Shown: positions 18,763-38,940, numbered from the stretch's first letter. The stretch: 60,645 nucleotides of DNA from an uncultured Bacillales bacterium (GCA_946614095.1 CAMOGG010000002.1:1-60645); one strand, 5' to 3'. Made by a program: numbers and translations. The notes: generated by a model not told the origin, from the letters alone.

Positions 18763-18764
18763 AA

Positions 18765-23217: not shown

Positions 23218-23268
23218 TAATTTTATTTTGAATTAAAAATTATTTTATAAAAGGTGGGAGGATTTGCT

Positions 23269-23721
23269 ATGCAAGATGCTTTAGGTGGTACTTTTAATCT
23301 TGTTTTAATTGCTGTTTTTTTAGTTATTATATCAGGAGTTTTAGGCTTTACAGTTAACTATACGAAAGCTTTTAAAATGAAAAACATTGTTATTTCTGCA
23401 ATGGAAGAATACGAAGCTGCTAGATGTGTTGGAGAGGGTAGTGAAGGTTCTGCTTGTAGAGAGAAGATTAAAGAAGAAGCAAGACGCATAGGGTATTCTC
23501 CTTCTGCTTTGTCGTGTTCTGATCAATATACTGCATATGATGGATTATTTTGTGCTACTGAGAATAAAATTAAATCTTCTAAAGATAGTAGTCGGTACGT
23601 TTCTTATCGTATTATTACACAAGTCGATGCTGATTTTCCGATTATACGCAACATTATGAGTTTTAGTTTTTTTCAAGTTTCTGGTGACACAAGAGTTATA
23701 CAAAAACCAAGTACAAGGTAA
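23269..23721 (+). CDS. Pseudopilin-like protein 1 (TadE/TadF analogue?)
   Basis: Starts MQDALGGTFNLVLIAVFLVIISGVLGF. Shares NYTKAF(K/R)MKN with the next gene. 4 Cys. GGTGGGAGG RBS; ATG 23269 preferred over GTG 23254. Confidence 0.65.
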   Translation: MQDALGGTFNLVLIAVFLVIISGVLGFTVNYTKAFKMKNIVISAMEEYEAARCVGEGSEGSACREKIKEEARRIGYSPSALSCSDQYTAYDGLFCATENKIKSSKDSSRYVSYRIITQVDADFPIIRNIMSFSFFQVSGDTRVIQKPSTR

Positions 23722-23731
23722 GGTGATTTAG

Positions 23732-24217
23732 ATGCGTGATGCGTTAGGTGGAACAGTAAATTTAGTTATTGTTATAGTTTTTATCGTTATTGTTTTTGGC
23801 TATCTTGCATTTAATGTAAACTATACGAAGGCTTTTCGTATGAAAAATAAAATTATTTCAACTTATGAAGATTATAATGGTGACTGTGATTCTGATTGTC
23901 AGAAAATTATCCAAGATTATGCAAAACAAGTTGGGTATCGTCCTGATATTCCAAGTTGTCCAGAAGGTATGCATGAAGCTAATAATGTTATTTTATCAGA
24001 AGGTTATAGTGGAAAATATTGTTTTAAGGAAATTAGTGTTAATTCTAGTGCTTCCACTAGTGGTAATGACTATATTCCGATGGATTCTTCAAGTAGAAAA
24101 TATTATCGAATAGCGACTAAAATTACTGTCGATATTCCTATTATTAAAAATGTTATTGGTGACTTACGCGTATTTTGGGTTTATGGTGATACAAAGGTAT
24201 TTAAAAAAGAAAACTAA
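23732..24217 (+). CDS. Pseudopilin-like protein 2
   Basis: Starts MRDALGGTVNLVIVIVFIVIVFGYLAF. Paralog of 23269-23721, including the shared C-terminal GDT(R/K)V. 4 Cys. Confidence 0.65.
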   Translation: MRDALGGTVNLVIVIVFIVIVFGYLAFNVNYTKAFRMKNKIISTYEDYNGDCDSDCQKIIQDYAKQVGYRPDIPSCPEGMHEANNVILSEGYSGKYCFKEISVNSSASTSGNDYIPMDSSSRKYYRIATKITVDIPIIKNVIGDLRVFWVYGDTKVFKKEN

Positions 24218-24237
24218 TAGAAAGGTGTTGAGATTCC

Positions 24238-25254
24238 GTGAATGTTATTGTTTCTAATGATCAACAGAATCAATTATCTAATTTAGATGTTGACATTATT
24301 AAAAGTTTAACTGGTGTTTATGATGCTTCTGAAATTGTTGAAATGTTCAAGAGCTTTTTTTATAGTAAAATGATATTGGATGTTTCTGCCCTTAAGAATT
24401 ATTCTGATTTAAAAACATATGAATTATTAGTATCAGGATTAGATGCTGATAAAATTATTTTTTTGTTGCCAGAAGGAAGTCAGTTATGTACACCTAATTT
24501 TTTATCTCAGTTAATTTCTATTGGAATTTATAATTTTACAACGAATTTAAATGGAGTTAAATATTTGTTGAAAAAACCTAATACTTTACAGGATGTGGAA
24601 CACATTCGTAAAATGGCTAATGTACAAAATTCTAATGAGACAGGTGCTGCTGTTGCGACGGTTGTTTCTACATCTAAAGTTCAAAATGGTTCGACAATTA
24701 TAGGAGTTAAAAATGTTACTGAACATGCCGGAGCAACTACCTTTATTTATTTATTAAAAAAAGAATTAGCTTTTACTTATGGTGCAGATAATGTTATAGC
24801 TATTGAAATTGATAAAAATGATTTTCAATTATTTCGCGATAAAAATATGGTTTCTGTTAAACAAGCTGAAATTAAGAATGCAATTCAAAAATATTCTTCT
24901 GCTACTTTTATTTTAGTAGATTTAAATACTTGTACAGATGATAGTTTTTGTGGGGATACTTTATTTTTAATGGAACCAAGTACTATTAAATTGAATCGTT
25001 TAGTTACTAGAAATAAATATGTTTTTAGTAAGCTTGTAAATAAAAAAGTTATTTTAAATCAAAGTTTATTAATGAATAATGATGTTTTTGATTTTGAAAG
25101 AGAAGCTGGTATTAAAGTATTTTATAATATGCCTCCATTGGATGAAAGAAAGAGAAATGGTGTTGTAAATGATTTCTTATCTAAGTTAGGTTTATTAAAT
25201 GAACAAGTAAGAAATACTGGTTCTGGTAAAATATTTGGATTATTTCGACGTTAA
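24238..25254 (+). CDS. tadZ: TadZ/CpaE-like protein (pseudo-receiver + ParA/MinD-like domain with degenerate P-loop)
   Basis: TIIGVKNVTEHAGATTFIYLL occupies the position of the deviant Walker A, and FILVDLN resembles a Walker B. Its position at the end of the tad module fits. GTG start. Confidence 0.45.
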   Translation: MNVIVSNDQQNQLSNLDVDIIKSLTGVYDASEIVEMFKSFFYSKMILDVSALKNYSDLKTYELLVSGLDADKIIFLLPEGSQLCTPNFLSQLISIGIYNFTTNLNGVKYLLKKPNTLQDVEHIRKMANVQNSNETGAAVATVVSTSKVQNGSTIIGVKNVTEHAGATTFIYLLKKELAFTYGADNVIAIEIDKNDFQLFRDKNMVSVKQAEIKNAIQKYSSATFILVDLNTCTDDSFCGDTLFLMEPSTIKLNRLVTRNKYVFSKLVNKKVILNQSLLMNNDVFDFEREAGIKVFYNMPPLDERKRNGVVNDFLSKLGLLNEQVRNTGSGKIFGLFRR

Positions 25255-25258: not shown

Positions 25259-25288
25259 TTGACAAATAATAATAATTAATATTATAAT
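25259..25288 (+). promoter_or_regulatory. Consensus SigA promoter at the head of the T4SS module
   Basis: TTGACA (25259-25264), 18-nt spacer, TATAAT (25283-25288). Confidence 0.7.
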
Positions 25289-25313: not shown

Positions 25314-25619
25314 ATGGATGAATGTGGAGGATTAAAACCAATTGTTAGACTTGTTAAAAGAGGACTTTTCCCAATTGTGCAATTAGGAATTCCTATTTTA
25401 TTAATTGTGTTTGGTACTATAGATTTAGGTAAGGCCGTTATTGCGAGTGACGAAAAGGAAGTTAAATCTGCGCAAAGTCGTTTGATTAAGAGATTTATTT
25501 ATGCTGCTCTTGTTTTCTTTGTTGTTGCTATGGTTAATGCACTTATGGGTATTGTTGCTACAGGACAAGCAGAAGATGCAAATACTGGTAGTTGGGCTGT
25601 ATGTTGGAAAAATGTTTAA
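25314..25619 (+). CDS. Small two-TM protein, VirB2/TrbC- or Maff2-like (candidate T4SS subunit)
   Basis: 101 aa. TM1 is FPIVQLGIPILLIVFGTIDLGKAV, followed by a charged loop and TM2 FIYAALVFFVVAMVNALMGIV. GAGAGG RBS. Confidence 0.5.
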   Translation: MDECGGLKPIVRLVKRGLFPIVQLGIPILLIVFGTIDLGKAVIASDEKEVKSAQSRLIKRFIYAALVFFVVAMVNALMGIVATGQAEDANTGSWAVCWKNV

Positions 25620-25631
25620 TAGAAAAATTAA

Positions 25632-25660
25632 AATAGTAATTTCATTGCTATTTTTTTTTT
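25632..25660 (+). terminator. Intrinsic terminator/attenuator after the first VirB2-like gene
   Basis: Stem aatagtaa/ttgctatt (one G-U pair), 5-nt loop, then a T-run at 25653-25660. Confidence 0.55.
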
Positions 25661-25704
25661 GTTCTGTTATACTTATTATGATAAAATATAATTGGAGTGG
25701 TTTT

Positions 25705-26217
25705 ATGAAAAAAGTGTTTATTATTTTATTATTATTGATTGGTATTTTTATTTATTTTACTCCAGTGGATAGTTATGCTATAAATATTCATTCTTTTGAA
25801 GATTATTTTTCAAATTCTTTTTCCATTTTGGATGAAAAAAAAGATAATGAAAAGACGAAAGAAAATAGTGGAATTGGATCTGTTGAAGATGCTGGAATAG
25901 ATATGGATCAATATAATCAAGATCAAAGCTGTGAGACTCTTTTAGGAGATCCAAATAAAGAAGACTCTGTTGCTTGGTTGTTACAAAAAGTTTTAGATAT
26001 TGTTAAAATTGTAGGGCCTTTATTGGTTGTTGTATTGAGTAGTGTTGATTTTGCTAAAGTAATTGTTAATAGTGATGATGATGCTATGGCAAAAGCAGCT
26101 AAAAAATTAGCTATTCGTTTAGTTTTAGCAGCTGCCTTATTTTTTATTCCTGTCTTGACAACTGCATTACTAGATGTTTTTGGAATCATGGGAGAACCTA
26201 CTTGTAATATACAATAA
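25705..26217 (+). CDS. Secreted paralog with C-terminal VirB2/Maff2-like two-TM module
   Basis: Signal peptide MKKVFIILLLLIGIFIYFTPVDSYA. The C-terminal half (IVKIVGPLLVVVLSSVDFAKVIV...AIRLVLAAALFFIPVL) aligns with 25314-25619. GGAGTGG RBS before ATG 25705. Confidence 0.55.
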   Translation: MKKVFIILLLLIGIFIYFTPVDSYAINIHSFEDYFSNSFSILDEKKDNEKTKENSGIGSVEDAGIDMDQYNQDQSCETLLGDPNKEDSVAWLLQKVLDIVKIVGPLLVVVLSSVDFAKVIVNSDDDAMAKAAKKLAIRLVLAAALFFIPVLTTALLDVFGIMGEPTCNIQ

Positions 26218-26241
26218 TTATTAATAGTTTAGAGGTGATAG

Positions 26242-28497
26242 ATGATGGGAGAGACTGATTTAACAGAAGCTAATGTAGTAACAAATGGTATCCGATATGC
26301 TTTATCGTTACTTGATTTACCTTTTTTTGGATTATTAGCGATACTTTATCAATTATTCTTTAATGTTGCATCTGTTGAACTATTTAGTAAATCCATTATG
26401 AAATTTTTTGAAAGAGTTCAAATTATTATTGGGATTTATATGATGTTTCAACTTGCAGTTACTATCTTAAGAGGAATTGTAGATCCGGATAGTTTTATGA
26501 AGAATCAAGGAGGGTCAAAAGGACTTGTTCCTAGAATTATTATTTCTCTTACTATGTTAGCTCTTATTGTACCGGTGAAAACTTCTGGTGGAGAATCTAG
26601 TGAGTTTGCTGCACAGATTAATAATCAGGGATTATTGTTCGGTACATTAAGTTCTTTACAATATCGAATTATTAATAATAATACGATTGGAAAATTAGTA
26701 TTAGGAGTAAATGATACAAGTTCTAATTTTATTAATTCTGAAGATGATGAAGATTCTGAACAGTTAGAAACATCCGCTCGTATTTTTGCTTCTACTGTTT
26801 TAAAGGGTTTTTATCGGATTAATTTAATTCCTGAGGCTGACCGTGATGAAAGTGATAATCCTGATGGTAAGGCGGATGATCAAGTAAATGCATATCGTAT
26901 GTGTAAATCTATTAGTACAGATATTATTAATGATGATCCTCCTGGAAAGTATAATCGAATTGATGCTGATCCAAGTGAAATTATTGGGATGATCAATGAA
27001 ACCTGTACTTCTACCTATGAGCCTTCTGATGCGTCGTCTGGTGGACTTCTTGAAACTGTTGGAGGAATGTTTTCTACTGGTACAAAGCGATATGTTTTTG
27101 TTCATATTCCTATTCTTTCAGCAATTGTTGCTGGAATTTTCTGTGTTATTTTATTAAGTTTTACGATTGATATTGCGGTACGTATGATTAAGCTTGCAAT
27201 GTTACGTTTAATTGCTCCAATTCCTATTATTAGTTATATGGATCCGAATGGAAGTAAAGATGGTGCTTTTAGTTCTTGGTGGAAGACATTACTGTCTACT
27301 TATTTAGATTTATTTGTTCGATTAGCATCTGTTTATTTTGTTATTTTCTTAATTCAAGATATGATTACCTATGGTATTATTGTTAATAAGATGGAAGGAC
27401 CACTTGGTGCTTTTACCACAATAGCAGTATTCATTGGATTATTTGCTTTTGCAAAACAAGCTCCTAAATTCTTTAGAGAAATCTTAGGATTAAAGGGAGA
27501 AGGAAGTGGCTTCTTCAGTGGATTTGGTGCTATTGGTGCTGCTGCTGGTTTGATTAGTGCTGGTGCCGGAGTTGCTGCTGCTATTCCTGGGGCTATTGGT
27601 TCTGGACTTGCTCATGCAAGGGCAAGTCGTATGGCAGATGAGACTAGGGCAAATCTTGGTGAAAAAACAGTTTTTGGAAATGATGTTGATCCTGATGGTA
27701 TCTTTAATCGAGGAAAACATGTCGTAGCTGGTATTGCTGGAGCACTTACTGGTGGAGTTGCAGGAGCACATGCTGCTGCAACAGCAAAAGATCATGCCTT
27801 TGATGCAAGTGTAAATGCAATGAGGCAGAGAAATGCTTCTGCTATTAGTAGAGGAAATGATGGCTCTACTTTATTAGGTACTTGGGGTTCTACTGCTAGT
27901 AACATATTTACCGGTGAGGGAAGAGCTGCTGCTGTAGATAGAGATATTAACTCTAATAAAAATCGCTTAGATGCCTTAAAAGCTATCAAATCTCGTGTTT
28001 CTGGTGAAATGGTTAAAGCTGATTGGACTTCTGGTAGTTTAGGCTTAAAGGATTCCTCTGGAAATGATATTGCTACAAATTATAAGAGATTTATGGCTAC
28101 GTATGAAGCTGCAAAATCTAGTGGTGCTACATCAATGGTTGTGCATAATGATATAACAGGTCGGGATGAAACAATCTCTATGGAAGCTGCAGAATATCAA
28201 AAAGGATATTTACTTAAAACAAATGAAAATGATTATGTTGTTAGAAATGTAAATGGAACGGCAACAAAAATTGATGATAGATTATTGACATTAGTTCATA
28301 ATGCTGAAGTATTAGGAGGTTCTGCTAATTTTGTTAGAAATGCTGATGGAACGATTGAAAAAGGTGATAATATTCATATTACGAATCGTGATGCAATTAC
28401 TAATGGTATTGATGGATTTGAGGATTATAATACTCAATTGGCAAGAGAAAATTCTATTAATAAGGCTAATGACCGACATAGTGGAGATAAGAAATAG
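26242..28497 (+). CDS. VirB6/TrbL-like polytopic T4SS channel protein with Gly/Ala-rich segment and soluble C-terminal domain
   Basis: Multiple TM helices. IDIAVRMIKLAMLRLIAPIPIISY is a TrbL/ICE-membrane-protein-type motif. It sits directly upstream of the VirB3/VirB4 genes. Confidence 0.6.
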   Translation: MMGETDLTEANVVTNGIRYALSLLDLPFFGLLAILYQLFFNVASVELFSKSIMKFFERVQIIIGIYMMFQLAVTILRGIVDPDSFMKNQGGSKGLVPRIIISLTMLALIVPVKTSGGESSEFAAQINNQGLLFGTLSSLQYRIINNNTIGKLVLGVNDTSSNFINSEDDEDSEQLETSARIFASTVLKGFYRINLIPEADRDESDNPDGKADDQVNAYRMCKSISTDIINDDPPGKYNRIDADPSEIIGMINETCTSTYEPSDASSGGLLETVGGMFSTGTKRYVFVHIPILSAIVAGIFCVILLSFTIDIAVRMIKLAMLRLIAPIPIISYMDPNGSKDGAFSSWWKTLLSTYLDLFVRLASVYFVIFLIQDMITYGIIVNKMEGPLGAFTTIAVFIGLFAFAKQAPKFFREILGLKGEGSGFFSGFGAIGAAAGLISAGAGVAAAIPGAIGSGLAHARASRMADETRANLGEKTVFGNDVDPDGIFNRGKHVVAGIAGALTGGVAGAHAAATAKDHAFDASVNAMRQRNASAISRGNDGSTLLGTWGSTASNIFTGEGRAAAVDRDINSNKNRLDALKAIKSRVSGEMVKADWTSGSLGLKDSSGNDIATNYKRFMATYEAAKSSGATSMVVHNDITGRDETISMEAAEYQKGYLLKTNENDYVVRNVNGTATKIDDRLLTLVHNAEVLGGSANFVRNADGTIEKGDNIHITNRDAITNGIDGFEDYNTQLARENSINKANDRHSGDKK

Positions 28498-28513
28498 AGG
28501 GAGTGTGATATAA

Positions 28514-28834
28514 GTGAATAATTATTTGATACCGGCTAATACGAAGAGGGGTAAATTAATTTTAGGATGGTTTCGGCCTTTTGATTTAGCTTTGTTTGGA
28601 ACCGGGGTTTTTCTTACGATTGTATTACTTGCATTTCTTCCTGTTGGAGAAATTTGGGTTACTTTATTAATCTTAAGTCCAGCTCTTATTACAGGATTCT
28701 TAGTTTTACCAGTTCCTTATTATCATAATATGATGAATATTATTGTGGAAGCATTTGAGTTTTATACTCATGATCAAACATATAAATGGAAAGGTTGGTG
28801 TTATAGAGATGGCAGCATCAAAGGAAAAAAGTAG
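28514..28834 (+). CDS. PrgI/VirB3-like small membrane protein
   Basis: 106 aa. Starts IPANTKRGKLILGWFRPFDLALFGTG, then two TM helices. Sits immediately before VirB4. GTG start after a GAGGGAG RBS. Confidence 0.6.
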   Translation: MNNYLIPANTKRGKLILGWFRPFDLALFGTGVFLTIVLLAFLPVGEIWVTLLILSPALITGFLVLPVPYYHNMMNIIVEAFEFYTHDQTYKWKGWCYRDGSIKGKK

Positions 28835-29411
28835 TAATGTAAAGACAAAGAGTAAAAGTAGTTCTACTAGTCGTACTAGTGGTCCTTTTACAGAAAACTG
28901 GTTACCAGTTCGTTCTATTCAAAATAATATGATTATTACTCGTAATAATTATAAAGTAGGTGGAGTTAAGATTGCTCCTCGTAATATCTTTATCTTAGAC
29001 ACAGATACTCAAAATAATATTTTACTTGGTCTTCGAAATTTCTATAATACTATTGATTATGAGTTTTGGTTAGTGGTTGCGGATCGTCCTGTTGATATTT
29101 CTGTTTATATGTCACAGATGCAATTATTACTTAATGAGACAAATTCTCCTGCTATTCGTAAATTGATTATGCAAGATATTGAAAAGGGAGAGACGTTTAT
29201 TCGTAATAATGTTGTTGATACGGAATATTATTTCTTATTTAAGACAAAAGATGTTGATTTGTTTCAGAAAAGAGTTCGTCAGATGATTAATGGACTTGCT
29301 ACTTGTGGTTTGAATGCATCTATGATTAGTAATTCTGATTTAAGATTAATTCTTGAAAACTTCCTTAATGGAGGAAATACGACAGAGTTTGGAACGGTGA
29401 TGCCTGTATGA
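28809..29411 (+). CDS. virB4: VirB4 N-terminal domain encoded as a separate ORF
   Basis: ENWLPVRSIQNNMIITRNNYKVGGVKIAPRNIFILDTDTQNNILLGLRNFYNTIDYEFWLVV matches the N-terminal segment of monoderm VirB4 (TcpF/Orf16-type). Its stop overlaps the next ATG (ATGA at 29408-29411). Confidence 0.6.
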   Translation: MAASKEKSSNVKTKSKSSSTSRTSGPFTENWLPVRSIQNNMIITRNNYKVGGVKIAPRNIFILDTDTQNNILLGLRNFYNTIDYEFWLVVADRPVDISVYMSQMQLLLNETNSPAIRKLIMQDIEKGETFIRNNVVDTEYYFLFKTKDVDLFQKRVRQMINGLATCGLNASMISNSDLRLILENFLNGGNTTEFGTVMPV

Positions 29412-31198
29412 GTACAAGTTTAAGAAGTCAAATTGCTCCTAAGGGGTTACATTTTAATCCGAGCGATTTTATGATTAGTGATAAGTATGCTACTATTTTA
29501 TCAGTTGTTTCTTATCCAAAATATATTTCTCCTGGTTATTTATCTTCTCTTACGAATATGAGTGGAATTAAGGTTGTTGTAAAACATATACCTGTTCCTT
29601 GGGCTGAAATGAGTAAGATGTTAAATAAGCAGGTTGCTGATTTGAAACAAAGATATCAAGATGAGAGAGACCAAACTTTAAGAGAAAGAATTAGACAAGA
29701 TGCTGAAAGTTTGGAATACTTTACTTCTATGCTTGCCGGTAGTCAAGCTCGTATCTTTGATTTTCAAATGCATATTATGATTACTGCTGATACAAAGGAA
29801 CAATTGGAATTAAAAAAATTAAATGTAAAGAATTATTTGGATGCTATGGAGTTAAAGGCAATTTCTTTGCGTTTTGAGCAAGAAAAAGTATTGAAATCTA
29901 TTATTCCAGTTTTTCCTAAACAAGATGTTGAAGATAGAATTGGTACACCAATTCCATCTGTTACTATTTCTGCTATGTATCCATTTATTTTTGATAGTTT
30001 AAAAGATCCAGGACTTGCTACTTTGCTTGGAGTAGATTTCTCTGGAGGAGTTATTTTATTTAATCAGTTTTTATATAAAATACGTAAAGAAAATAATAGA
30101 AATAATGCTAATATGATTATTCTTGGTACTTCTGGTTCTGGTAAGAGTACAGCTGCAAAGTTACTTTTAAGAACTCATATACGTAATGGATGTCAAATTG
30201 TTATTATTGATCCTGAAGATGAATTTCGTGAAATTACTCAGGCTTTTGGAGGAGATACTGTTGATATTGGTAAAGGTGGAGAGTTTGGACTTATTAATCC
30301 ACTTGAAATTGTAATTGATGCAGATGAAGAAGAGATTCGTCAGGGTCTTGGTTATACAGTACTTACTCGTACTTTGCAATTTTTAAAGGCCTTTATGAAG
30401 TATTATGATCCATCTATTCCAGAAGATGTTTTGACGATGTTTTCTGAGGTTGTTCAAGATACTTATAAACGTTTTGGTATTGATTTTAATACGGATTTTT
30501 CAAGATATACTTCAGCTGATTATCCTACTTTTAGTGATGTTTATGCAACTATTAAAGGTAGATTGATGTCTATGACAGATCAGACTCAAGAGAGAGATAT
30601 CATGGAACGATTAGAATTAAAGATTCGACCAATTGTTAAAGAATTAAAGTTTTATTTTGATGGTCATACTACTATTCGTAAAGGTAGTGACTTTATGGTC
30701 TTTAATATTAAAGAATTAATGAATAGTGATTCTACTGTTAAAAATGCTTTATTCTTTAATGTATTAAAGTATGCTTGGGGATTGTGTTTGGACTTTAATG
30801 TTGATACTATACTAATGGTAGATGAAGCACATGTATTGTTAGGTGATAATAATGCACTTGGAGCTGACTTCTTAGCTCAAGTTCAAAGACGTGCTCGTAA
30901 GTATAATACTGGAACGATTATTATTACTCAACAACCTAGTGATTTTTCTGATCCTTCTGTTATTACGCAAGGTAAAGCTATTTTTGATAACTCTTCTTAT
31001 TATTTAGTTATGGGGCTTCGTAAACAAGCTGTTGAAGATTTATCATTATTAATTGATTTAAATGAAAGTGAAAAAGAAAGTATTAAACATTATTCTCAAG
31101 GTGAAGCGTTGTTTGTTTGTGGTAGCCGAAGAATGAGAATTAATGTTGCGGTTACACAAGAAGAACTGGATTCCTTTGGTACAGGAGGGGGATTCTAG
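29408..31198 (+). CDS. virB4: VirB4-like T4SS ATPase (central and ATPase domains)
   Basis: IAPKGLHFNPSDFMISDKYATILSVVSYPKYI, Walker A GTSGSGKST, Walker B ILMVDEAH and IIITQQPSDF. Confidence 0.85.
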   Translation: MSTSLRSQIAPKGLHFNPSDFMISDKYATILSVVSYPKYISPGYLSSLTNMSGIKVVVKHIPVPWAEMSKMLNKQVADLKQRYQDERDQTLRERIRQDAESLEYFTSMLAGSQARIFDFQMHIMITADTKEQLELKKLNVKNYLDAMELKAISLRFEQEKVLKSIIPVFPKQDVEDRIGTPIPSVTISAMYPFIFDSLKDPGLATLLGVDFSGGVILFNQFLYKIRKENNRNNANMIILGTSGSGKSTAAKLLLRTHIRNGCQIVIIDPEDEFREITQAFGGDTVDIGKGGEFGLINPLEIVIDADEEEIRQGLGYTVLTRTLQFLKAFMKYYDPSIPEDVLTMFSEVVQDTYKRFGIDFNTDFSRYTSADYPTFSDVYATIKGRLMSMTDQTQERDIMERLELKIRPIVKELKFYFDGHTTIRKGSDFMVFNIKELMNSDSTVKNALFFNVLKYAWGLCLDFNVDTILMVDEAHVLLGDNNALGADFLAQVQRRARKYNTGTIIITQQPSDFSDPSVITQGKAIFDNSSYYLVMGLRKQAVEDLSLLIDLNESEKESIKHYSQGEALFVCGSRRMRINVAVTQEELDSFGTGGGF

Positions 31199-31214
31199 AA
31201 TTTAATGAAGTTAG

Positions 31215-33590
31215 GTGGTGGTATCGGTGGCATATCAAGCGAATGGTTCTAGGAATCAAGATGCTGAAAAGGCAAGAAATGATGCGAATAATGCAAGAAA
31301 TGTGAGTAATGCTGCTGATGTTGCCATTGCATCTAAAAATCCATATGGTGTTGCGGCTGGTTTGGCTGTTAAAGGCGCTGATGCTGCTACTGGTGGTAAG
31401 GCTTCTGAAGCTTTAGGAAAAGGTTTAACTGCTGCTAATAAAGTTTCTCCTTTGGGGAATCATGCGCAAAATTTTTCCAATCGAGCTGCTGAAAGTGGAT
31501 TAAGTGACACTGTTGGAGCAGGTAGTAGATTAGTATCGAATATGCATAATGGAAGTATTCATGACAATACTGGTGCCGGTATCTCTCCTGATAAAATGCC
31601 AAATCAAGTCAAAAATAAACAATCAGGAGGAGAACAAGAGAATAGTTCTCTTCCTTCTTCTGATGGAAAAAATCAAGTTCCTCCTAGAACTGATTCTACG
31701 GAACCTCAAAAAAAGCGTGGTGTTTTAGGAGAAAACCATGAAAGTGAAGATTCTACTTATCAGGAGGAAGAGAAAGAAACAAAAAGTAAAGGGCTTTTTG
31801 GAATTTTTTCAATTCGTTCTTTTATTGTAATGGTTACTATCATATTTCTTCCTATTTTTTTATTCTTTTTTATCATATTGTTTGTTCTCGTAAGCTCTAG
31901 TACTGTTTTGTCTGGATTTGAGGATGCATTGGGAGCTAGTGAGGCTTCTGGAGAGGAACATGGAAATGTTAATTTTAATGTTGGTTCTGCAGAGCAAAGA
32001 GAGTTTTATAATCGTGTTAATTCTGTGAAATTAAGATTACAAGCACAGGGAAAATCAGTAGATGCTTATAAAGTAGCAGCTGTTTATTATGTTATTAATG
32101 ATAATAACTCTACTATTAGTTATAATAGTATGACGGAAGATGCAATTACGGATATTGCTAATGCGATGTTTTCTGGAAATACTTATGATGAGTCTACGTT
32201 TAAAAATAATTTAGTTTCTAATATCTTTCCAACCTATGTTTCTAATCCGTCTTCATCTTATCAAACTATGGCTGATGATGTGTTTGACTATATTGAAAAA
32301 TATGAGAGTATCATTGATAAAAAGGCTATCAATAGTTATCGTACTTCTTGTTCTTCTACGGGAAGTTGTACTTATGATATTAAGGGCTATTATATTCATG
32401 GAAAAGGTAATGTTTCCGAGGCTTTACAAGTTAAAGACTTATATGTTCGCTTAATGCAATGTGGGGTTGGAAATGGTCATGATTATGGTGGAACATTTGG
32501 AAAACCAATGGATGGAGAATCTTTAGTTCCTTTTGAAAAATATGTTTTAGGAGTTGCTTATCAAGAAATTGGTCCAGATGCTCCAGCGGAAGCTATAAAA
32601 GCTCAAATGATTGCGGCTAGAAGTTATATTTTAGCAAGACATGCTGATATGGGTGGTTGGAGAACGTTGAAAGAAGAATCTGGACGTTGGGTTATTCAAG
32701 TTGCTTCTTGCACGCAAGATCAGGTGTATTGTGATCCTGATCAAGGTTGTTCTTCTAATGATGGTCAGTGGGGACAGATTCATAGTGGACAAGCTCATAA
32801 TACAGGTTTTAGCCGGGCTGCAATGGCGGAAAATTCACCATTGCGTACCTATGCTAGCCAAACTTCTGGAGAAGTATTGATTAATCAATCAGGGTATATT
32901 GTTTATACTGGTTATTTGCAAAACGAGCAAAATCAATTTATTTCTTTAGCTAAAAAAGGATTTAATTATAAACAAATATTATTACAAGTTTATAATCAGG
33001 GTAATCGTAATTATGGCGCTAGTGATATTTTAAGAACAACTTGTAATAGTAGTGGTTCAGCTTCTTGTGGAGGTGCAGTTGGGGACTTTATCAACTGGAA
33101 ACAAAAGGGAGAAACTTGGTCTAATACTCCAATGGGTAATAGCGGTCGTACAATTGGAAATATTGGTTGTTTAGTAACATCTGTTGCTATTCAAATTGCT
33201 CGTAGTGGAGTTCCTGTTAATGTAAGTGATTTCAATCCAGGAACGTTTGTGGAACAGTTGAATGCAAATGGTGGATTTGATGGATATGGTAACTTTACTT
33301 GGGCTGCTGCATCTAGAGTTGCTCCTTCGTTCCAATACCAAGATAAAATTTATGTTGCTGGAATGAGTCGAGAACAAAAACTAGCCACTATAACTGATTT
33401 GGTTAATCAGCCAAATACCTATGTTGTTGCAGAAGTAAAAGGTAATACTGGTCAACATTGGGTTGCAATTAATTCCGTTAATGGAAATTCTGTTACTATG
33501 ATGGATCCTGGTTCATCAGCAACTGATTTATGGTCAGAATATAATTGGGCTAATACCTCGACTTTGGCATATTATAAAGTAAGTTCATAA
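31215..33590 (+). CDS. Membrane-anchored cell-wall hydrolase: SpoIID-type domain + papain-like (C39-like/CHAP-type) Cys peptidase (VirB1 analogue)
   Basis: TM helix FIVMVTIIFLPIFLFFFIILFVLV. SpoIID pattern EKYVLGVAYQEIGPDAPAEAIKAQMIAARSYILARH. C-terminal IGNIGCLVTSVAI ... GQHWVAINSV provides a Cys/His pair. GTG start is uncertain by a few codons. Confidence 0.7.
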   Translation: MVVSVAYQANGSRNQDAEKARNDANNARNVSNAADVAIASKNPYGVAAGLAVKGADAATGGKASEALGKGLTAANKVSPLGNHAQNFSNRAAESGLSDTVGAGSRLVSNMHNGSIHDNTGAGISPDKMPNQVKNKQSGGEQENSSLPSSDGKNQVPPRTDSTEPQKKRGVLGENHESEDSTYQEEEKETKSKGLFGIFSIRSFIVMVTIIFLPIFLFFFIILFVLVSSSTVLSGFEDALGASEASGEEHGNVNFNVGSAEQREFYNRVNSVKLRLQAQGKSVDAYKVAAVYYVINDNNSTISYNSMTEDAITDIANAMFSGNTYDESTFKNNLVSNIFPTYVSNPSSSYQTMADDVFDYIEKYESIIDKKAINSYRTSCSSTGSCTYDIKGYYIHGKGNVSEALQVKDLYVRLMQCGVGNGHDYGGTFGKPMDGESLVPFEKYVLGVAYQEIGPDAPAEAIKAQMIAARSYILARHADMGGWRTLKEESGRWVIQVASCTQDQVYCDPDQGCSSNDGQWGQIHSGQAHNTGFSRAAMAENSPLRTYASQTSGEVLINQSGYIVYTGYLQNEQNQFISLAKKGFNYKQILLQVYNQGNRNYGASDILRTTCNSSGSASCGGAVGDFINWKQKGETWSNTPMGNSGRTIGNIGCLVTSVAIQIARSGVPVNVSDFNPGTFVEQLNANGGFDGYGNFTWAAASRVAPSFQYQDKIYVAGMSREQKLATITDLVNQPNTYVVAEVKGNTGQHWVAINSVNGNSVTMMDPGSSATDLWSEYNWANTSTLAYYKVSS

Positions 33591-33603
33591 AAGGAGATTC
33601 TAT

Positions 33604-34383
33604 ATGGGAAATAAGAAAAAGTATATTATAGCGTTTATTATTCTTGTTCTTTTTGGTGTTATTATGTTTCTCCTTTTAGGAGTAAATAATATACGAGAAA
33701 ACCAAATGAGTACTACACTGATTGTTGGTGATAATACCATTTGGCATTATTCTGAAAAAAAATGGGTACATCTTACCTCAGCAAAATCTTTTCATAATTT
33801 AGAATGGAAGCAGTATCATATTTATTTGGATAATAAAAAATATGGTGATTATTATTTATGGCATGACGATAAGTGGTATGCTTTTGATTCTCGAAAAAAT
33901 GCTGTTCCGTTAAAGGGAGAATTATTGGCTATTAAATCAAACTATGATATTCCTGTTGAGAAAGGATTGGAAGAGAATGTAGATGATAGTGAATATATTA
34001 ATCAAGTGTTAAGTGATTATAATCTTTCCTTATCTAGTCATTTTACTTCTAAATATAAAGTTCTTTTTGATTTTGATTCTGATGGAGTAGAAGAAGAGTT
34101 TTATGTGATTAGTAATGTATTTGCTTTAGATTTTCAACCTGATACGCTTTTTTCTATTGTTTTTATGGTAAAAGACGATACAATATATCCCATTTATCAA
34201 GATATTAGCTCTAACCAGTCTATGAATGGATGTAAGCCATTTTTTAAATCTTTCTTAGATTTGAATGAAGATCAGAAGTATGAATTTATTTTAAGTTGTG
34301 GTTATTATGCTAATGAAAAGCAAATCGATATGTTATATCATTTTGATCAGGAAGAGTTTAAAATTATCATTTCTAGTTCATAA
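33604..34383 (+). CDS. N-terminally anchored protein of unknown function (positional candidate for VirB8/TcpC/PrgL role)
   Basis: AAGGAG RBS. A single TM helix (YIIAFIILVLFGVIMFLLLGV) is followed by a roughly 220-aa extracytoplasmic domain. The functional assignment rests on position only. Confidence 0.35.
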   Translation: MGNKKKYIIAFIILVLFGVIMFLLLGVNNIRENQMSTTLIVGDNTIWHYSEKKWVHLTSAKSFHNLEWKQYHIYLDNKKYGDYYLWHDDKWYAFDSRKNAVPLKGELLAIKSNYDIPVEKGLEENVDDSEYINQVLSDYNLSLSSHFTSKYKVLFDFDSDGVEEEFYVISNVFALDFQPDTLFSIVFMVKDDTIYPIYQDISSNQSMNGCKPFFKSFLDLNEDQKYEFILSCGYYANEKQIDMLYHFDQEEFKIIISSS

Positions 34384-34388
34384 AAGTA

Positions 34389-34417
34389 ATGACAGTTTTT
34401 AAAAGATAAGTTATAAT
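34389..34417 (+). promoter_or_regulatory. SigA-type promoter upstream of virD4
   Basis: aTGACA (34389-34394), 17-nt spacer, TATAAT (34412-34417). Confidence 0.55.
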
Positions 34418-34440
34418 AAAGAGAGAGAGAAGGGAATCCT

Positions 34441-36756
34441 ATGAAGTTTAAATTTCGAGCAGATGCAGAAGATTTATTAATTTTTATCATGTTTGCAATA
34501 TTTCTTTTATTTATTGTTGCATTAGCAATTGCTAATATTCATACTTTTGCTGTTACTGGGCATTTTTCTGGATTAAATTTTCTTCCTGCTTTTGCTCCTG
34601 ATTGTATTTTTTCAACTATAGTATTTTATTTTGTTTCTTTGTTGGGATTATTTGCTAGTGTTAGTTCTATGTTTTTTGAACGTGAAAAAGGGTTTGGAAT
34701 TACAACAGATAAAAACGATAAAGGTTATTCTAGATGGGCAAAGGATAAAGAGATTCAAGCAGAGTTGAGTCAGATTCCTATTACAGCTGTTAATGCGAAA
34801 GAGGCGGGTGTACCACTTCTTTTAAATGATAAAGAGATGTGGGTAGATAATGGGGAATATCATTCTTTGGTTATTGGTGCTACTGGTTCTGGAAAAACTC
34901 AAACGGTTATTTTTCCAATGGTTCATAGTTTAGCAAAAGCAAAAGAGTCTATGATTATTACAGACCCTAAAGGTGAAATTTATGAAGAGACTTCTAATAT
35001 GCTTCGTGCTCGTGGATATCAAATATTACTTCTTAATTTCCGTGATCCTCAAAATGGTAATGCATGGAATCCTATGTCTTTGCCTTATAAATTATATCAA
35101 GCAGGAAATCATGACAAAGCCATTGAGTTATTAGATGACTTGGCTCTTAATATCTTATATGATGATACTAATAAAAATAATGATCCATTCTGGGAAAAGA
35201 CTTCTGCAGATTATTTTTCAGGTGTTGCTTTAGGATTATTTGAAGATGCTAAAGAAGACGAAGTTAATATTAATAGTATCTCTTTAGCAACAACTGTTGG
35301 AGAAGAAAAGTTTGGTGGTTCTACTTATATTAAAGAATACTTTGCAGCGAAGGATCCTGCTAGTGCTGCTGCTATTAATGCTTCTAGTACTATTATGGCT
35401 CCTAATGAGACAAAGGGAAGTATTTTATCTGTTTTTAAACAAAAAGTTAAATTATTTGCGTCTCGTGATAATTTGTCTGAAATGCTATCTCATTCTGATA
35501 TTGATTTAGAGAGTATTGGTGAAAAACCTACTGCGGTATTTATCGTTATTCAAGATGAGAAGAAGACATATCATTCTTTAGTTACTATTTTATTGAAACA
35601 GATTTATGAAACATTAATTAGTGTTGCTCAAAAACATGGTGGAAAGTTACCTATTCGTACAAATTTCTTATTGGATGAGTTTGCGAATATGCCACCATTA
35701 AAAGATGTTACTACTATGATAACAGCTGCTCGTTCTCGTAAAATTCGTTTTACGATGATTATTCAAAACTTTGCCCAGTTAGATGATGTATATGGTAAAG
35801 AAGAAGCGGAAACAATTCGTGGTAACTGTGGAAATATTATTTATTTGATTACAACTGAGTTAAAAGCTCTAGAAGAAATTTCTAAGATGTGTGGGGAAGT
35901 TAAATCTAAAAAGGATGATAAAACGGCTTCTACTCCTCTTGTTACTGTATCTGATTTACAGCGTATGAAGCAGTTTGAAGTTATTATTCTTCGTATGAGA
36001 AAACAACCTTTTAAGACAAAATTTACTCCTAATTATAAATTGAATTGGGGGAAGAAATATCCTCCTGCTAAATATCCAACTCGTGAAAAACAACAAGTAC
36101 ATACTTTTGATATTAAGGAGTTTGTTAAGTCTCAGAAGAAGAAAAAATTATTAGAAATGATGAATGCGGCTGATGCAAGAGATAGTGAAAATATGAGTTT
36201 ACCAATGGGTGGAAGAGGTCGTCCTTCCAATCCTTTTGCAAGTCAATTACCTCCTGAATTGGATAGTGTACGTACAGGTCGTCCTTCTTCTGCTACTTCT
36301 GATATACCTGATTTTTTAAGAAGAAAGCCTGTACAAGAAGAGAAAGATATTATTCGTACGAAACCTAGAAGTTCTATACCTGATTTTGATACCTTTAAAC
36401 GTCAGATGGAAGATGATGATTTTTCTCCAGTTCCTTCTTCTCCTGTTAAAACTTCGCCATCTAATGTGGATGATGATTTAGGATTTGATGTTGATGAATT
36501 AGTGAAGAAGATTGATGCTAAAATTGCTGAATTAGAAGCAGAGGAAAAGAAAAATCAAGCTGAAATTGAATCTAAAAATAAAAAACAAGAAGAGAGAGCT
36601 CTTCCTACTACTCCAGTGCCTGTACATAGTATTCATGATGATGTTACATCATCTCACTCACAATCAACAACTCAAAAAACAGATGTTGATATTAATTTAG
36701 AAGATGATGGGGATGACGATGATGATGACTTCTTTGATGATTTTTTTGATAATTAG
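34441..36756 (+). CDS. virD4: VirD4/TraG-family type IV coupling protein with long disordered acidic tail
   Basis: Two N-terminal TM helices. Walker A GATGSGKT, Walker B FLLDEFANMP, and IIQNFAQL. The tail ends DDGDDDDDDFFDDFFDN. Confidence 0.85.
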   Translation: MKFKFRADAEDLLIFIMFAIFLLFIVALAIANIHTFAVTGHFSGLNFLPAFAPDCIFSTIVFYFVSLLGLFASVSSMFFEREKGFGITTDKNDKGYSRWAKDKEIQAELSQIPITAVNAKEAGVPLLLNDKEMWVDNGEYHSLVIGATGSGKTQTVIFPMVHSLAKAKESMIITDPKGEIYEETSNMLRARGYQILLLNFRDPQNGNAWNPMSLPYKLYQAGNHDKAIELLDDLALNILYDDTNKNNDPFWEKTSADYFSGVALGLFEDAKEDEVNINSISLATTVGEEKFGGSTYIKEYFAAKDPASAAAINASSTIMAPNETKGSILSVFKQKVKLFASRDNLSEMLSHSDIDLESIGEKPTAVFIVIQDEKKTYHSLVTILLKQIYETLISVAQKHGGKLPIRTNFLLDEFANMPPLKDVTTMITAARSRKIRFTMIIQNFAQLDDVYGKEEAETIRGNCGNIIYLITTELKALEEISKMCGEVKSKKDDKTASTPLVTVSDLQRMKQFEVIILRMRKQPFKTKFTPNYKLNWGKKYPPAKYPTREKQQVHTFDIKEFVKSQKKKKLLEMMNAADARDSENMSLPMGGRGRPSNPFASQLPPELDSVRTGRPSSATSDIPDFLRRKPVQEEKDIIRTKPRSSIPDFDTFKRQMEDDDFSPVPSSPVKTSPSNVDDDLGFDVDELVKKIDAKIAELEAEEKKNQAEIESKNKKQEERALPTTPVPVHSIHDDVTSSHSQSTTQKTDVDINLEDDGDDDDDDFFDDFFDN

Positions 36757-36771: not shown

Positions 36772-37998
36772 ATGAGTACAAATTTTAATATAGTAAAAAA
36801 GAAGAAAGATGATGATGAAGAAGATTTCATGGATGAAGATGAAATAGAAGAAAGTGAAAGTAAAAGTAGTGGTACTTTTAATCAAGATGCAAAAAAAAGA
36901 ATGATTCTTTTTATGGGAATATTATTAGGTGGTTTACTTTTATTATTCTTAGTCCTTTATATTGTATCATTATTTTCTCATTCTACTTATCAGTATGAAG
37001 ATATCGAAAATGTTTTAAAGAATGCAGCAATTGCTTATTTTAAAGAAAACGATAGTTATCTACCTGTTAATGATGGAGATATTGTAGAAGTAGATTCTTC
37101 TAATTTAGTTGCAACTGGTAAAATGCGTGATTTATCCGAATATACTCCTGATGGTGTATTATGTTCTGCTACTGTTCAAGTAGAAAAATCTGGTACACAA
37201 TATTTATATACTCCATATTTAAATTGTGGTGATCAGTATACGACAATGGATTTTTCTAAAAAACTTACTCAGGATAGCAATAGTATCGTTACTGAAGGAT
37301 ATGGTCTTTATTCTATGAATGGTGAATATGTTTTTCGGGGAGAGAATGTTAATAATTATGTTCAATTAGGAGATCAATTGTGGCGTATTGTCAAAATTAG
37401 TTCTAATAATAATGTTGTTTTGATTCATAATACAGGAATAACATATGAAATACAGCCATGGGATGATCGTTGGAATGAAAGTACTAAGTATTCTAGTGGA
37501 TTTAATCAATATAAAAATAGTAGAATCTACGAGTATTTATTGAATGCTTATCAATCTCCATCTGAAAATGCATCAAAATTATTACTTTCAGATGAAGATA
37601 AGGCCAAAATTGTTTCTTATAATCTTTGCATTGGTAAACGTTCTGCAAATAGTGAAGGATTTCAAAATAAGGAAGAGTGTGCTGAAGTATTACCAGACCA
37701 AAAGTATGGATTATTGACATTATCTGACTATATGGCTGCTAGTGTTGATCCTAATTGTAAAAATGCAAATAGTCCATCTTGTCTAAACTATAACTATTTA
37801 GTTACAAAATTTGATTGGTGGTTAGCTACTGCTAGTAAAGATGATAATACGAAAGCTTTTTTGGTTGATTATGGAGGAAAGGTTTCTTTAACAGAGGCTA
37901 ATCATTTCTCTATTGTTCGTCCTGTTGTTTATTTAAATAGTAGAATATTGTATAAGAGTGGAAGTGGAACATTAGAAGATCCTTATATATTAAAATAG
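36772..37998 (+). CDS. Type-A surface protein 3 (short paralog: acidic N-tail, TM, pilin-head-like domain, one LWRI/VRP-type domain)
   Basis: Head segment ...YLYTPYLNCG, then NNYVQLGDQLWRIVK, FSIVRPVVYLN and the end GSGTLEDPYILK. These are the same modules as in A1/A2. Confidence 0.7.
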   Translation: MSTNFNIVKKKKDDDEEDFMDEDEIEESESKSSGTFNQDAKKRMILFMGILLGGLLLLFLVLYIVSLFSHSTYQYEDIENVLKNAAIAYFKENDSYLPVNDGDIVEVDSSNLVATGKMRDLSEYTPDGVLCSATVQVEKSGTQYLYTPYLNCGDQYTTMDFSKKLTQDSNSIVTEGYGLYSMNGEYVFRGENVNNYVQLGDQLWRIVKISSNNNVVLIHNTGITYEIQPWDDRWNESTKYSSGFNQYKNSRIYEYLLNAYQSPSENASKLLLSDEDKAKIVSYNLCIGKRSANSEGFQNKEECAEVLPDQKYGLLTLSDYMAASVDPNCKNANSPSCLNYNYLVTKFDWWLATASKDDNTKAFLVDYGGKVSLTEANHFSIVRPVVYLNSRILYKSGSGTLEDPYILK

Positions 37999-38040: not shown

Positions 38041-38337
38041 ATGGGAGGTGTTTTTTTGAATTCTATTTCAATTTCTCAATTGTTAAAGAAAAAGAATGTT
38101 ACTATTATTGATATAAGGAGCCATAATCTTTACTTACAAGGACATATACCTGGAGCTATTTCTATTGAAGAGAAGGAATTATTATTTTATCCTAAAAAGT
38201 ATTTAAATCATCAAAATATTTATTATTTATATTGTAGTTCTGGAAATAGAAGTTTTCGTTTATCTACTATGTTAAATCGTATGGGGTATCATACCGTTAA
38301 TGTTGTTGGTGGATATCAGAATTACTTGTTAAACTAG
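38041..38337 (+). CDS. Single-domain rhodanese-like sulfurtransferase
   Basis: Active-site loop YCSSGNRS and a GHIPGAI motif. The start may instead be the TTG at 38056, after the GGGAGGTG RBS. Confidence 0.8.
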   Translation: MGGVFLNSISISQLLKKKNVTIIDIRSHNLYLQGHIPGAISIEEKELLFYPKKYLNHQNIYYLYCSSGNRSFRLSTMLNRMGYHTVNVVGGYQNYLLN

Positions 38338-38373
38338 TCGAAATATATTATAATGGATAGGAGGGTGGATACG

Positions 38374-38940
38374 ATGGAGACACTACAATCTTTTATTGAT
38401 TTTTGTATAGAATTATTAGTTCGTGGTGGTCTATTTTGGGGCTTTTTTCTTGTGTTTTTAGAAAGCTTTATTCCTATGTTACCTCTTAGTGTATTTGTTG
38501 CTTTTAATGTAGAAGCTTTTGGTTTTTCTATTGGAACTTTTATTTCTTGGATAGCAACTTGTATGGGAAGCTTTTTCTGTTATGTATTATTTTATTTTTT
38601 AGGAGAACGTGTCCGAGATTGGAGTTTATTTTCTAAGATATATCAGAAGGTACAGTTTTTTCAAAAGATTTCTTTTTCTCAGCTAGTATTAATTCTTACT
38701 TTACCTTTTACTCCTTCCTTTGCCATTAATATATTATCTGGTATTACTTATATTTCTAAAGAAAAGTTTATTTTATCTTTATTAATTGGAAAGATGTTTA
38801 CTATTATTTTTTGGGGATATATTGGTAAAAGTATATTAGATAGTTTGACTGATATAAAGACACTTCTTTATATCGGGTTTACGTTAATTATTGCTTATGT
38901 TATTTCAAAAATGATTGGAAAACGGATGAATATAGAATAG
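38374..38940 (+). CDS. TVP38/TMEM64 (DedA-related) family membrane protein
   Basis: FLESFIPMLPLSVF and the multi-TM pattern are typical of the family. AGGAGGGTGG RBS before ATG 38374. Confidence 0.7.
   Translation: METLQSFIDFCIELLVRGGLFWGFFLVFLESFIPMLPLSVFVAFNVEAFGFSIGTFISWIATCMGSFFCYVLFYFLGERVRDWSLFSKIYQKVQFFQKISFSQLVLILTLPFTPSFAINILSGITYISKEKFILSLLIGKMFTIIFWGYIGKSILDSLTDIKTLLYIGFTLIIAYVISKMIGKRMNIE

Follow-up and report, generated by a model that had tools for sequence, protein, structure and literature searches.

The window analysed here is the whole 60,645-nucleotide contig CAMOGG010000002.1 (GCA_946614095.1; contig C2) of a metagenome-assembled genome (MAG) of an uncultured Bacillales bacterium, and its positions 25314-36756 encode a type IV secretion system (T4SS) that retains the VirD4 coupling protein and has no relaxase. 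This T4SS is very probably a domesticated chromosomal system of the MOBless type, and not an integrative and conjugative element (ICE). Sequence comparison suggests that the module is the secretion half of a conjugation-type machine, which stems from the same stock as the transfer regions of pBMB67-like plasmids and appears to have lost the MobL/MobP3 relaxase. The fuller proposal, in which the domesticated system also offers its VirD4 in trans to relaxase-DNA complexes of the MOBV family, is rather probable.

The T4SS genes form the second half of a locus of ~33 kb (5096-37998), all on one strand. The initial annotation treated the T4SS as an isolated module; it is in fact one half of a vertically inherited locus of Tad-like, T4SS and adhesin genes. 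The MAG comprises 1.38 Mb in 78 contigs with ~29% G+C and an estimated completeness of 76%, and the sequence is held by public sheep, bovine and goat gut metagenome runs. A species scan with one genome per species gave at least 521 confirmed relatives of the VirB4 ATPase domain (VirB4C) from 599 candidate stretches, and the best 80 loci were analysed.

Components of the T4SS module

Every open reading frame (ORF) that the initial annotation had placed between 25314 and 36756 is present, and its view of an intact T4SS with a coupling protein is borne out by Pfam, NCBIfam and PDB matches. Coordinates and assignments are collected in Table 1. VirD4 scores 192 bits with PF02534 (T4SS-DNA_transf), 88 bits with PF10412 and 89 bits with PF12696; with 305 bits it exceeds the cut-off of 250 for NF045973 (conju_CD1115), and its closest solved structure is TrwB (1E9R). 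Orthologues of 75-82% identity are found in 30 of 36 genomes of the same genus, with fragments on short contigs in three more. The MAG holds exactly one VirD4 and one VirB4.

VirB4 is encoded by two ORFs, which are joined by a 4-nt ATGA overlap. VirB4C scores 351 bits with NF045975, whose equivalog cut-off of 590 is not reached, and 178 bits with conju_CD1110; the closest solved structure is that of Thermoanaerobacter VirB4 (PDB 4AG5, E 3e-55). The split is present in 78 of 78 loci, 69 of which have the two-gene form with the 4-nt overlap, and also in pBMB67. A frameshifted VirB4 pseudogene is ruled out by this conservation.

The VirB6-like protein has a single NCBIfam match, a weak one to the Mycoplasma ICE protein Mbov_0396 (22 bits against a cut-off of 70). 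Neither of the two small proteins encoded before it (25314-25619 and 25705-26217) matches a Pfam or NCBIfam family, and the two-helix protein encoded directly before VirB4 gives no direct sequence match to PrgI. The wall hydrolase has no PDB relative by sequence, and its C-terminal ~170 residues lack a domain assignment. Since the products of 25314-36756 are all membrane or secreted proteins or ATPases, no cytoplasmic ORF is left in which a relaxase could hide.

The gene between the hydrolase and virD4 encodes a 259-residue membrane protein (tm259), for which a VirB8/TcpC/PrgL role had been proposed from its position. The AlphaFold2 model (35 orthologues; pLDDT 92.4) predicts one N-terminal helix and a beta-rich ectodomain. 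Compared with VirB8-type proteins, the model contains the bitopic anchor and shows no recognisable NTF2-like fold. A Foldseek search of the PDB gave no match at E<=0.001, and TcpC (3ub1) ranked 42nd with an E-value of 0.36 and a TM score of 0.16. As these matches lie at chance level, the fold lends no support to the proposed role, which stays positional. The tm259 gene is dispensable or replaceable, as tblastn finds it in 35 of the 80 loci and a closed relative has other proteins there. The whole wall-hydrolase segment between VirB4 and VirD4 is likewise a replaceable cassette, occupied here by the SpoIID-type hydrolase and tm259 (31215-34383). The segment of the closed relative (L076:11769-16714) encodes an M23 peptidase and a protein that weakly matches NlpC/P60, and it also contains three ORFs without an assignment.

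We also note that the tail of VirD4 (36121-36756) ends in an Asp/Phe run. In seven same-genus relatives, in which the VirD4 core is 75-82% identical, the last ~90-135 residues (after ~635-680) align only as a separate, weaker piece.

Relaxase searches in the MAG

The Pfam scan of all contig ORFs of at least 90 residues found no relaxase, Rep, recombinase or integrase family. Between 22900 and 38400, the largest inverted repeats are ~14-nt palindromes or arms of 75% complementarity, none of them oriT-like, and the intergenic gaps within the T4SS module measure 12-85 nt. These scans uphold the initial observation that relaxase and oriT-like features are absent in cis. An ICE is expected to encode a VirB4 ATPase and a coupling protein, both of which are present, together with a relaxase and an oriT, neither of which accompanies the T4SS.

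The genome-wide scan for MOB and Rep-type relaxases, which had been suggested as a check, was negative for seven families in the MAG, with MOBH outside the search. In six-frame translation, no match was found to PF03432 (Relaxase, MOBP), PF02486 (Rep_trans, MOBT), PF03389 (MobA_MobL, MOBQ), PF01076 (Mob_Pre, MOBV), PF08751 (TrwC, MOBF) or PF13814 (Replic_Relax, MOBC), the last of these without a positive control. The pBMB67 relaxase scores only 23 bits with PF03432, so that scans with this profile could miss it; a MobL hidden Markov model (HMM) was therefore built from four plasmid relaxases and searched against the MAG and a closed genome. The MAG gave no match to this HMM, to a purpose-built MOBV HMM, or to the pBMB67 relaxase used as a phmmer query.

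Conservation of the locus

In an even sample of the order, a VirB4 orthologue (E<=1e-100) is present in 238 of 251 genomes and in 105 of 110 genera, nearly all of one family. Identity to the query is 71-92% among the 150 matches listed, and a second match occurs in a few genomes. Genome size in the lineage is small (0.6-1.6 Mb), and the record titles of the relatives read uncultured Bacilli, Tenericutes, Mycoplasmatota, 'Mycoplasma sp. CAG:877', 'Clostridium sp. CAG:710' and Candidatus Onthousia; RF39 is an unverified label for it.

The best 80 loci share the order CpaB-CpaF-TadB-TadC-pilin-pseudopilin-TadZ-like-small transmembrane (TM) proteins-VirB6-small TM protein-VirB4N-VirB4C-hydrolase-(tm259)-VirD4-adhesin, usually followed by rhodanese, DedA and RmuC. 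The flanks, U32-U32-HD-GreA (U32 peptidases, HD hydrolase) to the left and rhodanese-DedA-RmuC to the right, as well as the gene order, are the same in four same-genus genomes, and VirD4-rhodanese-DedA-RmuC is kept in a genome of another order. An ICE would be bordered by an integrase or recombinase and would vary in presence and site; here, housekeeping genes flank the locus, and site and order are conserved. An ICE that is cut by the end of the contig is ruled out by the conserved synteny in relatives.

The identity of VirB4C to the window is 78-94% over the 80 best species loci. Median identities are 84% for VirB4C, 82% for RmuC, 77% for CpaF, 74% for TadB and 70% for VirD4, as compared with 43% for the hydrolase, 42% each for tm259 and the adhesin after VirD4, and 36.5% for VirB6. 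In the same genomes, the mean pairwise identity of VirB4C is 85% versus 79% for RmuC. Pairwise identities of T4SS genes and RmuC co-vary (r 0.63-0.65), as expected for co-divergence. The motor proteins are under strong purifying selection, at a housekeeping level; the surface parts are only 36-44% identical.

Relaxases in relatives and the closed genome

Among 24 same-genus genomes, MOBV relaxases score above the family cut-off in 13, with one additional weak match, and MOBP relaxases occur in eight, in several cases with a VirD4 paralogue of 26-29% identity at a distance of 2-3 kb; MOBT and MOBQ were not found. The second set consists of 30 locus-holding genomes, 26 of which have a single VirB4. 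MOBV is present in 18 of these (15 with a single VirB4), MOBP in 10 and MOBT in one, and nine are without any relaxase family searched. A few relatives carry ICE-type VirB4 paralogues, which are only 25-35% identical. The relaxases of these genomes are parts of accessory elements.

Three near-complete genomes (G001, G004 and G014) contain none of six relaxase families. Each nevertheless encodes a full-length, stop-free VirD4 orthologue, and G004 preserves the whole gene order as well. The integrity of VirD4 in these genomes without a detectable relaxase argues that selection on the locus is independent of a resident relaxase.

One genome of the second set, G061 (OZ006970.1), is a closed chromosome of 1,517,539 bp, in which positions 672001-680000 are masked (N). 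It contains one VirB4, the conserved VirD4 and a short orphan VirD4 paralogue, and no match to MOBP, MOBT, MOBC, MOBF or MobL was found in it (8 kb masked). A relaxase adjoining the locus in a complete assembly had been named as a finding that would refute the initial reading. In G061, none of the ORFs of at least 80 residues in the ~5 kb beyond virD4, all of which were scanned, is a relaxase, and the family and HMM searches gave no match near the locus. Its three MOBV genes are located at 0.35, 0.69 and 1.44 Mb, 0.23-0.59 Mb away from the locus at 0.10-0.14 Mb.

These data bear on the proposal that the locus is a self-transmissible ICE, or a recent remnant of one, whose relaxase, oriT and integrase lie off the contig or went unrecognised. 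The 76% completeness of the MAG and the diversity of relaxases, some families of which are outside the search, leave it some room. Against this stand the housekeeping genes on both sides of the locus on a single contig, the position and order shared by 80 loci, the occurrence of VirB4 in 105 of 110 genera, the relaxase-free surroundings of the locus in G061, the low identity of the ICE-type VirB4 paralogues (25-35%), and the finding that in the same-genus set MOBP genes sit beside VirD4 paralogues of 26-29% identity. A hidden ICE is extremely improbable and close to refuted.

In G061 (L113:16072-18292, ~95.6-97.8 kb), VirD4 is followed by the NAD-salvage genes for isochorismatase, NAPRTase and NAD synthase rather than by rhodanese-DedA-RmuC, and two tandem tyrosine recombinases are found ~4-6 kb downstream. 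The recombinase stretch is probably an unrelated neighbouring element. A location near the replication origin, as in some Patescibacteria, does not apply, as ~320 kb separate the G061 locus from the GC-skew minimum.

A second, orphan VirD4-like gene of ~460 residues, ~37-41% identical to the VirD4 of the locus, is present in many genomes of the genus (for instance L028:14254-15648, equivalent to G014:C1:20254-21648, and G061:269130-270158), and several copies contain an internal stop codon. It may represent an alternative or decaying coupling protein. The copy in G014 was considered as a sign of an ICE and rejected, since its neighbours are housekeeping genes (AraC regulator, AdhE, P-type ATPase) and do not include a VirB4.

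Relation to plasmid transfer regions

A tblastn search of 72,556 plasmids with VirB4C returned 1,378 records, none of which reaches 60% identity. The best matches (~28-29%) are to a Mycoplasmatota plasmid, an Exiguobacterium plasmid and the Bacillus thuringiensis pBMB67 family. In pBMB67 (NC_009841.1), the order is MobP3 relaxase, VirD4 (CD1115), hypothetical protein, TrbL, PrgI family protein, 227-residue protein and DUF87 VirB4, followed further on by a SAF protein, an AAA ATPase, a type II secretion system/type IV pilus (T2SS/T4P) ATPase, two hypothetical proteins and small proteins. BLASTP identities between the window and pBMB67 are 30% for VirD4, 26% for VirB4N, 28% for VirB4C, 26% for SAF/CpaB, 27% for CpaF, and 20% for TadB and TadC.

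The locus and these three-ATPase plasmids share a CD1115-type VirD4, TrbL/VirB6, a TM protein at the PrgI position, a split VirB4, SAF/CpaB, CpaF, TadB/C-like proteins and small pilins. Among these is the defining set of a pBMB67/pXO2-like region apart from the MobL/MobP3 relaxase that adjoins virD4. The pBMB67 relaxase matches Pfam MobL with 80 bits, and the Exiguobacterium and Sulfobacillus plasmids share with pBMB67 a MobP3/MobL relaxase immediately upstream of virD4; in an Oscillospiraceae plasmid, the stretch covered ends inside the relaxase gene, so that the virD4 side lies outside it. In contrast, the 259-residue membrane protein precedes virD4 in the present locus. The order of the modules is also inverted, with the Tad module first and virD4 last, and the locus is chromosomal, fixed and lineage-wide, with added sortase/adhesin cassettes.

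The top plasmid match to VirB4C (29%) is CP074574.1 (L136), a 97.9-kb plasmid of the cold-seep Mycoplasmatota bacterium zrk4, which encodes SAF, AAA, CpaF and T2SS-F proteins along with VirB4. This plasmid is typed as 'non-mobilizable' by MOB-suite, with no relaxase recognised.

Relation to other relaxase-less systems

MOBless T4SS were defined by Guglielmini et al. 2011 (PMC3158045) as an operational category that holds mostly proteobacterial effector systems. The present locus resembles the class in having VirB4 and a coupling protein with no relaxase at the locus and no neighbouring integrase; the class is silent on the substrate. The statement in the initial annotation that relaxase-free T4SS are essentially uncharacterised in Gram-positive bacteria is outdated in view of the systems of Patescibacteria (PMC12857230, PMC12102498), the Streptococcus suis 89K element and the Mycoplasma ICEs. 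No publication describing the present system in RF39 was found in the literature searches.

Of the systems described so far, the chromosomal T4SS of Patescibacteria comes nearest in function and evolution; it is relaxase-less and is needed for the epibiotic growth of a Saccharibacterium (PMC12102498; PMC12857230). The likeness extends to the monoderm-type set VirB1/B3/B4/B6/D4, MPF_FATA ancestry, chromosomal and lineage-wide occurrence, and filament genes (PMC12102498; PMC12857230), as well as to the absence of a relaxase from most clusters and to small-genome, auxotrophic hosts. The phylum is different, and the filament here is Tad-like and accompanied by sortase/adhesin cassettes, in an uncultured lineage. 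The features of a chromosomal, lineage-wide T4SS without a relaxase are found in both.

Mycoplasma ICEs (ICEA) have no identified relaxase (PMC6030558). They provide the best curated profiles for VirB4 and VirB6, and they too are minimal T4SS in Mollicutes-related hosts. They differ in being mobile, with a DDE transposase and random insertion, and in being without a hydrolase and a Tad module; the scores obtained here stay below the equivalog cut-offs (VirB4C 351 versus 590 bits, VirB6 22 versus 70).

This likeness raises the alternative that the machine carries out relaxase-independent exchange of chromosomal DNA, like the transfer driven by the T4SS of Mycoplasma ICEs. The best curated VirB4 profile is the Mycoplasma ICE ATPase (351 bits versus 178 for the clostridial profile), the sole NCBIfam match of VirB6 is Mbov_0396, and no relaxase has been identified in Mycoplasma ICEs (PMC6030558). 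Record titles relate the lineage to Mollicutes, and the recombination protein RmuC is a conserved neighbour. The VirB4 score nevertheless falls well below the cut-off of 590, no DDE transposase or other ICE gene is present on the contig, and the RmuC neighbourhood is lost in G061. Such exchange is improbable.

A DNA-uptake (competence) machine, in the manner of Helicobacter ComB or archaeal Ced, is very improbable indeed. The absence of a relaxase, the pilus module, the reported lack of nucleotide synthesis in RF39 (PMC13155120) and weak P-loop matches to CedD and CedB are in its favour. The highly conserved VirD4 kept at the locus, however, speaks against uptake of the ComB type, which is not known to involve a coupling protein. 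The Ced matches cover the P-loop alone, and in Saccharibacteria uptake through ComEC is separable from the T4SS requirement (PMC12857230).

MOBV elements and possible use of the channel in trans

The initial annotation had offered either proteins, or DNA processed by a relaxase encoded in trans, as substrates. Both remain candidates, the second being a realistic option in view of the MOBV relaxases on separate integrated elements in 18 of 30 locus-holding and 13 of 24 same-genus genomes. In G061, large serine recombinases adjoin two of the three MOBV genes, and no VirB4 or coupling-protein family match was obtained among the genes scanned around them. The units of MOBV relaxase and serine recombinase are, to judge from their gene content, integrative mobilisable elements. 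They share with the MOBV-type elements that hijack a resident T4SS the pairing of a Mob_Pre relaxase with a large serine recombinase, and neither a VirB4 nor a coupling protein turned up among the neighbouring genes scanned. The usual helper of such elements is a co-resident ICE or plasmid, whereas here the only available helper would be the core machine of the host.

The MOBV relaxases of the clade are 38-99% identical to one another and at most 41% identical to any PLSDB plasmid relaxase. Between G083 and G069, the relaxase is 92% identical in amino acids and 88.6% in nucleotides over 3.3 kb, compared with 80% for VirB4C, 70% for VirD4 and 65% for TadB; between G061 and G086, the corresponding values are 85% and 77%. 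Since the elements are more alike than the core genome in these divergent pairs, they have moved between species of the clade, in which the locus is usually the only conjugation-type channel. Mobilisation in trans is plausible. That the elements really use this VirD4 and its channel is a tentative claim, to which we give somewhat less than even credence.

At 1.436-1.439 Mb of G061 (L110:7871-11364), the MOBV relaxase has as neighbours a RhuM-family protein and one that carries a Tad4 (Thoeris inhibitor) domain, which are anti-defence-type cargo of the mobilisable element. MOBV matches number 11 in G003, eight in G080 and seven in G088; the high counts suggest bursts of the elements, or mixtures of strains within the MAGs.

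The most serious alternative is a machine that handles no DNA at all, secreting proteins or exchanging or extracting molecules with a partner cell, with the MOBV elements as unrelated passengers. The locus is universal in the family, in genomes of 0.6-1.6 Mb, and is conserved at a housekeeping level without a detectable relaxase in G001, G004, G014 and nine of the 30 genomes of the second set. RF39, to which the lineage is assigned by an unverified label, is reported to be without de novo nucleotide synthesis (PMC13155120), which would fit such a machine, and Saccharibacteria provide a precedent (PMC12857230). On the other hand, Pfam and NCBIfam reveal no gene of effector, immunity or chaperone type in the locus, and the intact, abundant, clade-specific MOBV elements moved between species with this sole VirB4. 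Something in these cells or their relatives conjugates them. We regard a pure non-DNA machine as unlikely, although it deserves to be kept in sight.

Proposed mode of action

For the domesticated T4SS whose VirD4 is usable in trans, the following sequence of events is proposed. The adhesins and the Tad-like fibre would contact another cell, and the hydrolase would open the wall. The VirB6-like protein, the small TM proteins and the two-part VirB4 would form and power the channel, to which VirD4, expressed from its own conserved promoter, would recruit cytoplasmic substrates. The machine would be kept for a benefit to the host, namely contact-dependent export or exchange, and relaxase-DNA complexes of resident MOBV elements could use VirD4 in trans.

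Several points weigh against this reading. The substrate, the direction of transport and the use of the channel by MOBV elements are all inferred. The MAG is 76% complete, MOBH lay outside the relaxase search, the MOBC search (PF13814) had no positive control, and relaxases of unknown types are possible; the masked 8 kb of G061 lie ~12 kb from the third MOBV gene. The homology to the plasmids is distant (20-30%), so that a capture of the chromosomal machine by plasmids can be read from it equally well. The T4SS is universal, which renders the co-occurrence with MOBV uninformative as a correlation, and donors outside the clade could have supplied the elements. The RNA evidence described below consists of assembled metatranscriptome contigs, which can contain carried-over DNA.

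Promoter-like sites and expression

The initial annotation had ascribed a promoter of its own to virD4. The site is present, and eight of eight alignable same-genus species have both of its hexamers at the equivalent position; the number of promoter-like sites, 79 versus 79.4 in shuffles, is at chance level. In a gut metatranscriptome of 2017 (X20), contigs without a single difference cover CpaF, VirB4C, the start of the hydrolase gene and VirD4, which is consistent with transcription in vivo. Three bovine metatranscriptomes contain diverged contigs (~10-16% different) on conserved genes.

Other features of the locus

The relatives carry one adhesin/sortase cassette at the place where the window has two. 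The Tad-like module is assigned through Pfam (T2SSE 96 bits, RcpC/SAF), synteny in the 80 loci and homologues in the pBMB67 transfer region; its 338-residue cytoplasmic protein, which has no Pfam match, is read as a putative TadZ-like protein. Beyond RmuC, the right flank continues with RpoD and other genes.

Table 1. Features of the locus and its right flank (window coordinates).
Position	Strand	Feature	Basis and remarks
5096..18762	+	Two diverged cassettes of four genes each, which open the locus: Ig-like/DUF6273 adhesin, sortase-like enzyme, giant Cys-rich secreted protein, DUF5411 membrane protein	Pfam
18723..25254	+	Tad-like pilus module: CpaB/SAF, CpaF-type ATPase, TadB- and TadC-like proteins, 53-aa pilin, two pseudopilin-like proteins, 338-aa cytoplasmic protein	
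25259..25288	+	Promoter-like site before the T4SS genes	TTGACA-18-TATAAT, 12/12 consensus; consensus match alone
25314..25619	+	101-aa protein with two TM helices, VirB2-like candidate	Topology alone; orthologues in 68/80 loci
25705..26217	+	170-aa secreted or membrane paralogue of the 25314 gene product	Signal-peptide-like N-terminus, C-terminal TM hairpin; orthologues in 69/80 loci
26242..28497	+	VirB6/TrbL-like polytopic channel protein with long C-terminal extension	PF19597 (TrbL_4), 36 bits
28514..28834	+	106-aa two-TM protein at the PrgI/VirB3 position	Directly before VirB4, as is the 'PrgI family' gene of pBMB67; 78/80 loci
28809..29411	+	VirB4 N-terminal domain as its own gene (VirB4N)	Matches positions 92-276 of NF045975 (VirB4_plasma)
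29408..31198	+	VirB4 ATPase domain (VirB4C)	Walker A GTSGSGKS, Walker B VDEAH
31215..33590	+	Membrane-anchored wall hydrolase, VirB1 role	SpoIID-like domain PF08486, 43 bits
33604..34383	+	259-aa bitopic membrane protein (tm259), beta-rich ectodomain, no family	tblastn match in 35/80 loci
34389..34417	+	Promoter-like site before virD4	ATGACA-17-TATAAT, 11/12 consensus
34441..36756	+	VirD4 coupling protein	N-terminal TM helices, ATPase core with all-alpha domain, ~200-aa variable acidic tail
36772..37998	+	Third adhesin-like membrane protein, closing the locus	Weak DUF6273 match; after VirD4 in 56/80 loci
38041..40038	+	Right flank after the end of the locus: rhodanese, DedA, RmuC	Pfam; flank shared by the genus and by one genome of another order

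Implications

A MOBless, lineage-wide monoderm T4SS is already known from Patescibacteria, and the Tad-like/T4SS mosaic from Bacillota plasmids. The novelty lies in combining a family-wide, chromosome-fixed form in abundant gut Bacilli with sortase/adhesin cassettes and clade-specific MOBV elements as candidate users. To our knowledge, nearly all known functions of Gram-positive T4SS are conjugation of plasmids or ICEs.

Patescibacteria, whose lineage-wide chromosomal T4SS is treated as a major unsolved problem (PMC12857230), are the single exception. The present locus would be a second independent lineage-wide case, in very common gut bacteria of humans and livestock, and with a plasmid-type ancestor or relative for comparison. 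Because the resident MOBV relaxases can be tested against VirD4, the question of what a relaxase-less monoderm T4SS carries becomes experimentally approachable.

A bolder view is that the lineage depends on the Tad fibre and T4SS for an obligate, contact-dependent life, in which macromolecules, possibly including relaxase-independent DNA, would be exchanged with or extracted from other cells, and that the same machine serves as the sole conjugation channel and is parasitised by MOBV elements. In this entirety the view is speculative, and we consider it unlikely; if it were true, the system would be the Bacillota counterpart of the Saccharibacteria T4SS. The locus could also help to explain why these bacteria resist cultivation.

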